This document shows positions 44 through 5,673 of a stretch of 64,000 nt of DNA, one piece after another. This DNA is from Escherichia coli (GTDB lineage Bacteria; Pseudomonadota; Gammaproteobacteria; Enterobacterales; Enterobacteriaceae). The stretch is from NCBI RefSeq assembly GCF_003018235.1, contig NZ_CP027437.1. One strand, written 5' to 3'. Each line of letters starts with the position of its first letter. Position 1 is the first letter of the stretch. The translations under genes were made by a program, and so were the position numbers. The notes under the pieces were generated by a model that was not told the DNA's origin, did not search any database, and saw nothing but the letters and a program-made list of their open reading frames with translations.

Positions 44-367
44 ATGAAGTGGGTAGTAATTGACACGGTAATTCAACCTACATGCGGCATATCTTTTTCA
101 GCCATATGGGGTGATATGAAAATGATCATCTGGTATCAATCTACTATATTTCTCCCTCCTGGAAGTATATTTACACCGGTTAAGCCTGGTATTATCCTTA
201 AGGATAAAGAATACCCTATTACTATTTATAACATCACACCATTCAACAAGAATTTATGGAGTTTACTCAAAAGCAGTCAAGAGTGTCCTCCAGGAGAAAG
301 CGAAATAACAAATAAATGTTTGCATAAGAGTTGTATTATAAAAATATGCCCATATGGGCTCAAATAA
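44..367 (+). CDS. hypothetical protein in AT-rich DNA beyond the icd 3' end
   Basis: ORF in strongly AT-rich sequence downstream of icd; no recognisable family; may be spurious. Confidence 0.2.
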
Positions 368-469: not shown

Positions 470-1720
470 TTACATGTTCTTGATGATCGCATCACCAAAC
501 TCGCTGCATTTCAGCAGTTTAGCGCCTTCCATCAGACGTTCGAAGTCATAGGTTACAGTCTTGGCGTTGATTGCGCCTTCCATACCTTTAACAATCAGGT
601 CTGCGGCTTCAGTCCAGCCCATATGGCGCAGCATCATCTCAGCGGAGAGAATAATAGAGCCTGGGTTTACTTTGTCCTGACCGGCATATTTCGGCGCAGT
701 ACCGTGGGTGGCTTCAAACAGGGCGCATTCGTCACCGATGTTTGCGCCTGGGGCGATACCGATACCGCCGACCTGTGCAGCCAGAGCGTCAGAAATGTAG
801 TCACCGTTCAGGTTCATACAGGCGATAACATCATATTCAGCCGGACGCAGCAGGATCTGTTGCAGGAATGCATCAGCAATCACATCTTTAATGACGATCT
901 CTTTGCCGGTATTCGGGTTTTTAACTTTCATCCACGGGCCGCCGTCGATCAGTTCACCGCCAAACTCTTCACGCGCCAGCTGGTAGCCCCAGTCTTTAAA
1001 CGCGCCTTCGGTGAACTTCATGATGTTGCCTTTGTGCACCAGGGTCACAGAGTCACGATCGTTAGCAATTGCGTATTCGATCGCTGCACGAACCAGACGT
1101 TTGGTGCCTTCTTCCGAACACGGCTTAATACCGATACCGCAATGTTCCGGGAAGCGAATTTTCTTCACGCCCATCTCTTCACGCAGGAATTTAATCACTT
1201 TCTCGGCGTCGGCAGAGTCAGCTTTCCATTCGATACCCGCATAAATGTCTTCCGAGTTTTCACGGAAGATAACCATATCGGTCAGTTCAGGGTGTTTAAC
1301 CGGGCTTGGAGTGCCCTGATAGTAACGTACCGGACGCAGGCAGATGTAGAGATCCAGTTCCTGACGCAGGGCAACGTTCAGAGAGCGAATACCGCCACCT
1401 ACTGGAGTGGTCAGCGGGCCTTTAATGGCAACGCGATATTCACGAATCAGATCAAGGGTTTCAGCAGGCAGCCAGACATCCTGACCATAAACCTGTGTGG
1501 ATTTTTCACCGGTGTAAATTTCCATCCAGGAGATTTTACGCTCGCCTTTATAGGCTTTCTCGACTGCAGCGTCGACCACTTTCAGCATGGCTGGGGTTAC
1601 ATCTACACCGATTCCATCACCTTCAATGTAAGGGATAATCGGATTTTCAGGAACGTTGAGTTTGCCGTTTTGCAGGGTGATCTTCTTGCCTTGTGCCGGA
1701 ACAACTACTTTACTTTCCAT
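470..1720 (-). CDS. icd: isocitrate dehydrogenase (NADP)
   Basis: 416 aa translation [43 protein letters not shown] matches E. coli Icd; stop at 470-472 verified. Confidence 0.97.
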
Positions 1721-1891
1721 TCACCTCTCCTTCGAGCGCTACTGGTTTGCTCGTCTGCCACCACGTTGCATATGCGTTTGCGTCCTGCGATACGGATGCT
1801 TTAGAGCAATTTTTTGTTAATGATTTGTAATTGGCTTGTCAATACTACCCTATTGTTTGCCGTCATGAAAGATGCGCGTTATTAGGCTATA

Positions 1892-2039
1892 ATGCGGCAA
1901 TTCATAATCTCTGAAAATACCATGCAAAAAACTTCTTTTAGACCAAAGACAGTATTTTCCCGACATTCAAATAAAGTATTAAATATCAATTATTTACACC
2001 AGATTTTAAGCAATAAAAAAACCACCAGAGATAACTAAC
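1892..2039 (+). pseudogene. displaced original 5' end of rluE fused to insert sequence
   Basis: ATG at 1892 encodes MRQFIISENTMQKTSFR, which I recall as the K-12 RluE N-terminus, then diverges and stops after 49 codons. Confidence 0.4.
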
Positions 2040-2180
2040 AGGGTGCTATTTGGTCAAAATTTGACATTACTCGATTCAGCGACTATCTCACTTTGAGCAC
2101 TATTGGGAAAATTATCAAAAGTCATGGTTGAAGCGACAAGCAACGAGTAAATTATGGCATCCCCCCTTTTTGAGGTTCAC

Positions 2181-2267
2181 ATGAAACGCTTTGCACTGAT
2201 AGCTGTGAAACTCGTTGCCTTTACTGGTTCTGCATCTGCTGCAACCGAAGAAATCAACTTCAAGTAA
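2181..2267 (+). CDS. 28-aa signal-peptide-like ORF
   Basis: MKRFALIAVKLVAFTGSASAATEEINFK preceded by a GAGG ribosome-binding site; within the rluE insert. Confidence 0.2.
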   Translation: MKRFALIAVKLVAFTGSASAATEEINFK

Positions 2268-2300
2268 CAGAAACACTATATAACAATGGAGTGTTGACAA

Positions 2301-2588
2301 ATGGATACTACCGAAGAACGCAATGGAACATATTTCTACAGAGGACACCCGAACCTGTCCAAAATAGAACTACTCAACGTCATATTCCTTGAAGAATTCT
2401 GTAAGGAATTGGGGATTGATTCGGTATCAGGTGCAGCAATCTTATCTGGTCAACCGTGGCTGGGTACAAGAGCGAAGCCGCAAGGGGCAACCCTGGGAAC
2501 AAGTGTTGTCTCAAAGTATGCGCGTATACTGATGAGAGATGCACGCATGCCTTTTGGTATTTGTGGGTGTAAGGATGCAGAAATCTAA
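2301..2588 (+). CDS. hypothetical protein
   Basis: 95 aa ORF in the rluE insert; no family recognised. Confidence 0.3.
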   Translation: MDTTEERNGTYFYRGHPNLSKIELLNVIFLEEFCKELGIDSVSGAAILSGQPWLGTRAKPQGATLGTSVVSKYARILMRDARMPFGICGCKDAEI

Positions 2589-2736
2589 TAAGCTTGCTGC
2601 AATTATCGCTCGTTGGGTCCCGTGGATTGGTTGGGCTTCACTGTCGATGAGTCTTTACAGGGTTTCGACTCGTACCCAGGAAAAATACAATCTGATTGCC
2701 AAACCTCAAGACCGTATTAAGTGGACTTCCTTCTAA
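2539..2736 (+). CDS. small putative membrane protein
   Basis: Hydrophobic stretch LAAIIARWVPWIGWASLSMSLY; likely start is the internal ATG at 2575. Confidence 0.25.
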   Translation: MHACLLVFVGVRMQKSNKLAAIIARWVPWIGWASLSMSLYRVSTRTQEKYNLIAKPQDRIKWTSF

Positions 2737-3071
2737 TGGCGACAACAATCACAGACGAAGTTTTAGCACTGTTCCGTGATGAGATTCCAGGTTATCAGGA
2801 TGACCACGGGAAGGAAATTCCGTTAGAACTGGACTCTGATTTGTTCGACTATCCACGAGATGATTTAGAGGACGCTATACGGAAATACAAAGAGAGGTTT
2901 GGGATTAACCTGGATAATCTGGACTGGTCTTTGTACCTTCCATGGGAGTCTGCACCATTGCTTCAACGATGGTTCAAGCTCAAGCGGGAAGAGGTAGAAA
3001 CAACACGTTTACCGTTAACTGTACGGATGTTTGCAGAATCAGCAGAAGCGGGAAAATGGCTGTATCAGTAG
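2721..3071 (+). CDS. hypothetical acidic protein
   Basis: 116 aa acidic ORF in the rluE insert; no confident family assignment. Confidence 0.4.
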   Translation: MDFLLMATTITDEVLALFRDEIPGYQDDHGKEIPLELDSDLFDYPRDDLEDAIRKYKERFGINLDNLDWSLYLPWESAPLLQRWFKLKREEVETTRLPLTVRMFAESAEAGKWLYQ

Positions 3072-3391
3072 AATAAAAAAGAAGGCTGCGATGCCCCTCT
3101 TATTACTGCTGATGATAGTAGTGGTAAAGCATCATCCTAAACTTGAACAGTGAAGTGCTGTCACCCATCAGTAATACAGAAACACTATTTTTCATACCAG
3201 TATTTATTCAATTCATCAATGTAAAATGTGTTCATTGGGCCATATTTATCACCATGCAGCCACACAACCGCTGCTCACTAACCCAGGTATTGATGAAACC
3301 GCGCTGAAGAGCCTGAACCCTGAACCTCTAACGAGTACCTTAAAAGTCCAATGCAATCCGACACTGTGCTACCCTCTGCGTATAGCTCTAT

Positions 3392-4042
3392 TTGGAATTT
3401 ACCATGAAATACTTTAGCGATTCTAAATCTTCTTTTAGAAAAAAACAGGTTAGTCGACTAAACTCGCAACACTCCACTAAGCGTAAACCTGAAAATCAGC
3501 CCACGCGCGTGATCCTGTTCAATAAACCCTACGATGTTCTTCCGCAGTTCACCGATGAAGCCGGACGCAAAACATTAAAAGAATTCATCCCGGTTCAGGG
3601 CGTTTATGCAGCAGGTCGTCTTGACCGCGATAGCGAAGGGTTACTGGTGCTGACCAATAACGGCGCGTTGCAGGCGCGTTTAACCCAGCCGGGTAAACGC
3701 ACCGGAAAAATCTATTATGTGCAGGTGGAAGGTATTCCCACACAAGACGCACTTGAAGCCTTGCGCAATGGCGTAACCTTAAATGATGGCCCTACCCTGC
3801 CCGCAGGCGTAGAGCTGGTTGACGAACCCGCGTGGTTATGGCCGCGGAATCCACCAATTCGTGAACGCAAAAGTATTCCCACCAGCTGGCTGAAGATCAC
3901 CTTATATGAAGGACGTAATCGCCAGGTGCGCCGCATGACCGCCCATGTTGGTTTCCCCACGCTGCGACTGATTCGCTATGCGATGGGTGATTACTCTTTG
4001 GATAATCTTGCCAACGGCGAATGGCGAGAAGCGACAGATTAA
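3392..4042 (+). CDS. rluE: 23S rRNA pseudouridine synthase E with substituted N-terminus
   Basis: Translation from [23 protein letters not shown] onward matches RluE; track start 3392 is TTG, first ATG is 3404. Confidence 0.85.
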
Positions 4043-4051
4043 GGACGCAAA

Positions 4052-5673
<1,622 letters not shown>

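Follow-up and report, generated by a model that had tools for sequence, protein, structure and literature searches.

Several described systems pair a secreted bacterial toxin with an adjacent immunity protein. Among the Hcp-dependent cargo pairs, Tse1-Tse4 of P. aeruginosa are matched by Tsi1-4, and Hcp serves as both receptor and chaperone. In Rhs proteins, which are accompanied by RhsI, toxin domains sit at the C-terminus, after the core, and arrays of divergent paralogous cassettes are typical of inter-bacterial toxins. The Hcp-ET proteins of the Enterobacteriaceae are fusions of Hcp with a toxin, and the concept of such a 'specialised' Hcp is cited in PMC8262886. Ssp6/Sip6 of Serratia comprises an ion-selective pore-forming T6SS effector and its immunity protein (PMC6889166). 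The locus examined here lies in a 64,000-nucleotide stretch of the Escherichia coli chromosome, referred to throughout as the window, and is considered alongside these systems and orphan immunity genes and islands. We put at roughly 0.7 the probability that it is a disarmed, orphan polymorphic toxin-immunity cassette that was horizontally acquired into the 5' end of rluE and is probably of an Hcp/T6SS-delivered kind.

The upstream gene of the locus (2301-2736) is a 149-aa member of the STM2901 family (NCBIfam NF045926; Pfam DUF8209, PF26636) that has been split by a frameshift, and the downstream gene (2736..3071, plus strand) is an intact DUF1493 gene encoding a putative immunity protein. A first-pass annotation of the same DNA had listed a hydrophobic peptide of about 53 aa followed by a 116-aa acidic protein, neither of which it considered assignable to a family; profile searches contradict this, giving STM2901 family/DUF8209 for the first and DUF1493 for the second. 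The 5' part of the toxin pseudogene (2301..2588, plus strand) is a 95-aa ORF in which native codons 1-87 are followed by 8 out-of-frame codons and a stop. It matched positions 1-80 of NF045926 (E=2.4e-26, 92.4 bits) and over residues 1-87 shows 100% identity to the intact allele WP_000381622.1, which RefSeq names 'STM2901 family protein' and for whose homologues PF26636 is on record. The 3' part, in the original frame (2563..2736, plus strand; codons 93-149 and the stop), matched positions 91-140 of the same 140-position model (E=8.7e-15, 55.0 bits) and is 100% identical by tblastn to residues 93-149 of WP_000381622.1. This part includes a 65-aa ORF (2539-2736), a 53-aa ORF (2575-2736) and the amphipathic helix KLAAIIARWVPWIGWASLSMSLY. 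At the junction between the two parts (2562..2563, plus strand) 14 bp (CTGTTCATACACCA) have been lost, removing codons 88-92 and shifting the frame. Deletion aside, the window is identical over 480 aligned bases to the intact allele of E. coli FDAARGOS_497. Both fragments score below the whole-protein cut-off of NF045926 (110 bits), the sole cause being that the gene is split. Pfam searches with the fragments and the intact toxin returned only matches below threshold, to the KELAA motif (15.6-17.4 bits against 23.4) and to DUF423 (14.5 bits against 25). Being sub-threshold, both identities were dismissed as noise, and a literature search on 'KELAA' gave nothing relevant.

Because its ORF of about 149 aa is interrupted, the copy in the window is a pseudogene. 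Of the 374 complete E. coli genomes that bear the surrounding islet, not one shows the deletion. That the deletion allele is nevertheless genuine follows from 26 public contigs on which the exact 95-aa frameshift product is recorded, and from an independent assembly (run SRR3033418) that matches window positions 801-4088 without a difference. The toxin gene in the window is predicted to be dead and the strain unable to make the toxin.

The acidic protein downstream, by comparison, proved to be the product of a real gene, as had been annotated. DUF1493 (Pfam PF07377) was matched with E=1.1e-29 and 103.6 bits, against a cut-off of 21, over residues 4-110, corresponding to model positions 3-107 of 108, and the predicted protein has a pI of 4.5, with 24 D+E against 14 K+R. 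The 116-aa ORF (2721-3071) uses a GTG start, and the start of the RefSeq orthologue (WP_000246191.1) equals the ATG at 2736, which gives 111 aa. This start and the toxin stop overlap in the sequence TAATG, and no obvious Shine-Dalgarno sequence precedes the ATG. On the frameshifted toxin ORF, ribosomes would stop 148 nt upstream of the DUF1493 start, and translation of DUF1493 may fall because coupling to the upstream ORF is lost by the frameshift. The strain may still make the immunity protein and hence retain protection from toxin-carrying relatives.

To place the pair in its family, neighbourhoods were sampled with one genome per species, which returned 49 loci, all from Enterobacterales. 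A DUF1493 ORF lies directly downstream of the STM2901-family gene in 48/48 loci not cut by a contig end, and usually overlaps its stop. In 26 of the 47 assessable loci, full-length hcp (Pfam T6SS_HCP) precedes the toxin gene in the same orientation, at a distance of no more than 60 bp; the remainder had an hcp fragment upstream (3), hcp elsewhere in the locus (8) or none (10). Where the pair is linked to hcp, in genera including Citrobacter, Enterobacter, Klebsiella, Raoultella and Erwinia, the toxin ORF begins roughly 10-20 bp past the hcp end. Carriers of the hcp-linked cassette include Citrobacter braakii ATCC 51113, Klebsiella michiganensis DSM 25444 and Enterobacter soli, and toxins with 85-88% identity are encoded at loci L009-L011, in Enterobacter and Enterobacteriaceae strains. 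The family loci thus resemble Hcp-dependent T6SS cargo pairs in having a small effector (16.8 kDa) encoded beside hcp and followed by an immunity gene, but differ in that the putative immunity protein is a cytoplasmic ACP-fold protein and that the E. coli copy has no adjacent hcp. No relation of the toxin to the named Tse or Ssp effectors was found in sequence or fold. Furthermore, a conserved hcp followed by interchangeable toxin-immunity cassettes in genomic islets recalls Hcp-ET, although the toxin here is a separate ORF and Pfam detected an Hcp N-terminus in none of the 10 fusion proteins tested.

An exhaustive profile search with the toxin domain yielded 404 representatives, the best 150 of which were examined for length and position. 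Among these best 150 of 404, the domain ends 8 residues or fewer from the C-terminus in all 34 proteins longer than 200 aa, and it directly follows the Rhs-associated core TIGR03696 in 6 of the 10 long homologues tested. Long homologues carry the domain at the extreme C-terminus, in these 6 cases after an Rhs core, whereas the window copy is free-standing. The similarity to Rhs toxins with RhsI extends to the polymorphic pair and to the occurrence of orphan or degraded copies. It ends with the form of the domain in Enterobacterales, a free-standing 149-aa protein starting MDTTEExNGTYFY, and with the Rhs fusions examined, neither of which (2/2) has a detectable DUF1493 downstream. A DUF1493 gene does lie downstream of a 432-aa metagenome fusion that joins a lipoprotein-like leader to the domain.

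The cassettes are polymorphic. Two Citrobacter loci (L003 and L035) encode Hcp proteins that are 100% identical, followed by toxins of 54% and DUF1493 proteins of 32% identity, so the adjacent immunity gene, present in 48/48 loci, diverges together with the effector. Several genomes contain two or three divergent cassettes, or arrays, with L038, L039 and Raoultella and Erwinia loci among the cases. Decay is one-sided: a broken or truncated toxin accompanies an intact DUF1493 in L042, L048, L049, L053, L055, the second cassette of L021 and the first cassette of L038, and the reverse, an intact toxin with a broken DUF1493, was never seen among the loci scanned. Read from sequence comparison, the pairing, the hcp link, the Rhs-tip position, the polymorphism and the toxin-only decay are hallmarks of a polymorphic toxin and its cognate immunity protein. 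An orphan toxin-immunity pair had been suggested in the first-pass annotation, and that part of the suggestion gains from the comparative evidence (Rhs tip, hcp, 48/48 pairing and divergence), while the membrane toxin of about 53 aa attached to it does not survive. Loss of the toxin with retention of the immunity gene is the usual fate of such cassettes, observed here in a circulating E. coli lineage. As in orphan immunity genes and islands, immunity alone is intact in the window, and toxin-broken cassettes recur in other species; unlike those islands, the locus is a single cassette and not an array, and the immunity start overlaps the stop of the frameshifted toxin ORF.

A classical intracellular toxin-antitoxin module, of the addiction or stress type, that would keep the islet or plasmids stable instead of acting as a secreted effector was weighed against the same observations and is considered improbable. 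The tight adjacency to hcp (26/47, with fragments in 3 more), the occurrence of the domain as the C-terminal tip of Rhs proteins and the divergent paralogous cassette arrays within single genomes argue against such a module, even though two small overlapping genes with a basic and an acidic product would suit it and hcp is missing from 10/47 loci and from the E. coli islet. The pair is present on 153 plasmid records, with plasmids of Serratia, Pantoea and Rahnella among the hosts, and also beside mobile-island genes, as stabilisation would predict. However, the DUF1493 protein has an ACP-like fold and not that of a DNA-binding antitoxin, and the PADLOC library, which covers defence and is rich in toxin-antitoxin systems, matched neither protein.

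The fold of DUF1493 bears on a further explanation. The structure model predicts an acyl-carrier-protein-like, four-helix carrier fold, in which helix II starts at RDDLEDA (residues 40-46). This fold, together with a toxin that has no recognisable catalytic motif, would be compatible with a pair that is not a toxin system at all, in which the two proteins would instead be accessories or chaperones associated with Hcp, or would form a small biosynthetic pair dependent on a carrier protein. In contrast to AcpP and peptidyl carrier proteins, the DUF1493 family does not conserve a serine where helix II begins (the DSL-type phosphopantetheine site), its members having D, E, T or A in that column, and it has an extra C-terminal helix with the near-invariant motif ESAKAGKWLYD. 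Since the phosphopantetheine serine is not conserved, DUF1493 is not a carrier protein. The position after the Rhs core is the usual seat of a toxin domain, and polymorphism behind an identical Hcp combined with toxin-only decay would be unexpected for housekeeping accessories; the non-toxin explanation is accordingly left with a small chance.

The properties of the intact toxin were examined for indications of how it might act. The protein has 149 aa and a mass of 16.8 kDa, a size compatible with the Hcp lumen (PMC8262886), and it is basic, with a pI of 10.0 that complements the pI of 4.5 of DUF1493. Family-wide invariants are G38, G50, T67, S68, S71, R109, P112 and G115, falling in part into the motifs GTSxxS and GRxxPxxG, and none of Asp, Glu, His, Cys or Lys is invariant in the family. 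The C-terminal third is modelled as a long amphipathic helix, in a structure model that is poor overall (pLDDT 56). A profile search of the PDB gave no sequence match even at E<=10, and no fold match was obtained for the pLDDT-56 model.

If the cassette is, as preferred here, of the Hcp/T6SS-delivered kind, the intact basic protein would be an antibacterial cargo effector that is held in the lumen of the Hcp ring until the T6SS injects it into neighbours. DUF1493, an acidic protein of the cytoplasm with an ACP fold, would bind the effector directly and neutralise it in the cytoplasm of the producer. Because the immunity protein is predicted to be cytoplasmic, the toxin would act either within the cytoplasm or at the inner membrane, from its cytoplasmic side. 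With no invariants of a catalytic type, and with Gly/Thr/Ser/Arg/Pro motifs flanking the amphipathic helix, a non-catalytic action is suggested, such as membrane perturbation or target binding from the cytoplasmic side. This is the weakest step, and the mode of action is a guess because the model is poor and no fold was matched. Immunity proteins known to protect against pore-forming toxins are located in the membrane or the periplasm, so a soluble cytoplasmic immunity protein fits the membrane-pore idea poorly. Going by its description, Ssp6/Sip6 also combines a small enterobacterial effector that has no enzymatic motif with an adjacent immunity gene, and would be a possible analogy if the membrane is what the helix acts on. 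The two systems are connected by no family model, and the immunity protein here is soluble, acidic and cytoplasmic, which speaks against a pore on the periplasmic side.

The setting of the cassette was established by comparison with K-12. In the window, icd (470-1720, minus strand) is followed on the plus strand by rluE, nudJ, mnmA, hflD, purB and a phoP-like response-regulator ORF, and the gap between icd and rluE, 171 bp in K-12, measures about 1.7 kb. According to blastn, the window equals K-12 at 100% from icd to 1942, including the first 21 nt of rluE, and then breaks off; these 21 nt (1922..1942, plus strand; ATGCAAAAAACTTCTTTTAGA) are a displaced relic of the original rluE start. Past 1942 there is about 1.5 kb of DNA unrelated to K-12, and homology returns at 3425 in a second, divergent 5' end of rluE, where the first 50-nt window agrees with K-12 at 39/50 positions and the next at 45/50, and identity from there on is about 98-100%. 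The insert is an islet of about 1.5 kb (1943..3424) in the rluE 5' end. Its GC content is 35-47%, that of the flanks 50-55%, and a 15-nt direct repeat, AAA[A/T]CTTCTTTTAGA, lies at either end (1928-1942 and 3425-3439). Within it, an exact 13-nt direct repeat, ACAGAAACACTAT, brackets the two-gene cassette (left copy 2267..2279, right copy 3176..3188, both plus strand), and homology of the islet to other species is limited to about 2300-3077, inside these repeats.

The islet also carries the replacement start of rluE (ATG 3404). The gene, placed at 3404..4042 (plus strand) by the RefSeq annotation of the orthologous locus, diverges from K-12 just past the islet, to about 3510, and its first ~35 codons come from the insert (20 protein letters not shown here), replacing MQKTSFRNHQVKRFS... 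of K-12. Islet carriage was recorded for 374 of 5,426 complete E. coli genomes (7%), and in 371 of the 374 the cassette is contiguous, with no IS interruption and mostly at 100% identity. Judged by its low GC and its presence in 7% of E. coli, the islet cassette is of foreign origin and horizontally acquired. The term 'rluE insert' used in the first-pass annotation was accurate, given the break from K-12, the direct repeat, the low GC and the patchy presence. The promoter and terminator scans, neither of which exceeded shuffled expectation, gave no plus-strand terminator and, from the relic rluE start to 2301, no plus-strand promoter. Within 1700-3500, no Rfam RNA family was matched.

Linkage to a T6SS, as judged by hcp, vgrG or PAAR, is seen in the family as the upstream hcp described above (26/47), as against the window and the E. 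coli islet, which have no hcp. No hcp or hcp remnant was detected by tblastn (E<=1e-3) in the window or in the left arm of the islet (1943-2300), and DNA homology between the window and hcp-bearing loci is absent outside 2300-3077. Complete E. coli genomes hold no close homologue of the cassette-linked hcp, the matches being partial, at about 70% nucleotide identity, and none reaching a query coverage of at least 80%. As the islet has no hcp, and E. coli no close hcp of the cassette-linked type, the cassette may be an orphan in this species even where it is intact, retained for protection or used via another Hcp.

The 65-aa ORF (2539-2736) contains an internal ATG at 2575, which yields the 53-aa form. 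That an ORF encoding such a peptide is present had been noted correctly in the first-pass annotation, but it is not an independent gene and its product is only moderately hydrophobic, with a GRAVY of -0.32 and a top 19-residue Kyte-Doolittle window of 1.24; the customary threshold for a membrane span in such windows is 1.6. Since one 14-bp deletion splits the 149-aa gene, the peptide is a frameshift remnant. As read from the letters, AAGG directly abuts ATG 2575, so no Shine-Dalgarno is at a usable spacing, and the 65-aa product has no record as a called protein in public records. Small membrane toxins of type I (Hok, TisB, Ibs, Ldr-like) are conserved, free-standing ORFs shorter than 60 aa that have a hydrophobic segment of transmembrane grade and an accompanying antisense RNA; here the ORF stems from a lineage-specific frameshift, hydropathy peaks at 1.24 and no Rfam match was obtained. 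The earlier proposal of a free-standing, type I-like small membrane toxin of about 53 aa with the acidic protein as its immunity factor is hardly credible, for although the ORF exists, holds an amphipathic, hydrophobic helix and adjoins an acidic gene, it represents the tail, out of its context, of the 149-aa gene found contiguous in 371/374 E. coli genomes with the islet, falls short of transmembrane-grade hydropathy, has no ribosome-binding site of its own, lies in a region with no Rfam family and gives a 65-aa product unrecorded as a called protein.

In the literature searched, no functional study of STM2901, DUF8209, DUF1493 or PF07377 was found. In the texts searched, which include a 2026 survey of Salmonella T6SS effectors and an Hcp-cargo paper, STM2901 appears only as an SPI-1-adjacent locus, and no report of a carrier-protein fold among T6SS immunity proteins was found. 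A reading of DUF8209 and DUF1493 as the toxin and immunity protein of one family, linked to Hcp and Rhs and with an ACP fold in the immunity protein, appears to be absent from the searched literature. The locus itself is fairly ordinary, a decayed accessory cassette of which RefSeq names both families in other strains. Its wider relevance is that two families of unknown function, DUF8209/STM2901 and DUF1493, can be interpreted together as polymorphic toxin and immunity protein, providing T6SS research with a testable new effector family and a carrier-fold immunity protein.

A more speculative extension, to which only a low probability is attached, is that the DUF8209/STM2901 proteins would be widespread T6SS- and Rhs-delivered toxins that act in the target cell by binding or sequestering ACP, or a surface of lipid synthesis on which ACP docks, with DUF1493 serving as a decoy ACP that has no phosphopantetheine serine. 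Fold and charge are the two grounds for this decoy reading.

The insertion point of the islet lies within the coding start of rluE (window 1922-1942 and 3404-3510). A 21-nt relic of the K-12-type rluE start persists on the icd side of the insert (1922-1942), and at the other end the gene has a divergent replacement start of approximately 35 codons (3404-3510) derived from the insert. The replacement of the rluE start by the insert is similar to the way in which icd has its 3' end rebuilt by the prophage e14. No integrase is left in the rluE insert. The arrangement suggests that the islet is a decayed integrative element with rluE as its target. An iraM-like anti-adaptor ORF of 107 aa (44-367, plus strand) lies directly past the 3' end of icd, and therefore, according to RefSeq annotation of the orthologous E. 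coli locus (L001), e14 itself is absent between icd and iraM in this strain.

Within the islet, an exact 13-nt direct repeat, ACAGAAACACTAT, flanks the two-gene cassette on both sides (2267-2279 and 3176-3188), with an estimated chance expectation of about 0.02 such pairs per 1.8 kb. Homology to other species stops just inside these repeats. Since the repeats bracket the cassette and mark the approximate limit of homology, the islet may be nested, with the cassette placed into older foreign DNA.

Divergence along the islet was uneven when window positions 1950-2266 were compared with 2301-3424. The left arm (1950-2266) showed just 95-97% identity to all 374 islet-bearing complete E. coli genomes, whereas the right arm was much closer (at least 99% identity in 352 of the 374), as was the cassette, apart from its 14-bp deletion, in alignment to L001. 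Several left-arm variants were common to the window and Escherichia sp. E1V33 (L008). Judged from these alignments, the islet in this lineage is a mosaic haplotype. The left arm also contains a 28-codon ORF, MKRFALIAVKLVAFTGSASAATEEINFK (2181-2267, plus strand), with a well-spaced GAGG in front of it. Its product resembles a signal peptide in which ASA|A forms the cleavage site and is followed by just 8 residues. The Escherichia sp. E1V33 copy of this ORF carries a frameshift, so the ORF is probably the remnant of a gene and not a functional peptide.

Among cassettes otherwise 30-55% identical (L003 and L035, the identical-Hcp pair, and L054; alignments A4 and A6), two ends were near-invariant: MDTTEExNGTYxY, at the N-terminus of the toxin, and ESAKAGKWLYD, at the C-terminus of the immunity protein. 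These motifs could have a function in Hcp loading and in binding of the toxin; alternatively, they could serve as recombination "handles", the variable middle being swapped behind a constant hcp.

In Enterobacter asburiae (L045, 1-4500), the cassette adjoins genes of mobile-island type (DUF932, RadC, DUF4942, HNH, and SymE-like), and an orphan hcp is located downstream of the immunity gene, not upstream of the toxin. Two Mangrovibacter loci (L038 and L039, 3.2-11 kb) carry several hcp, toxin, and immunity units in arrays that include frameshifted toxins, immunity fragments of half length, and one hcp followed by an immunity gene alone, and look like an effector-immunity graveyard or an immunity island.
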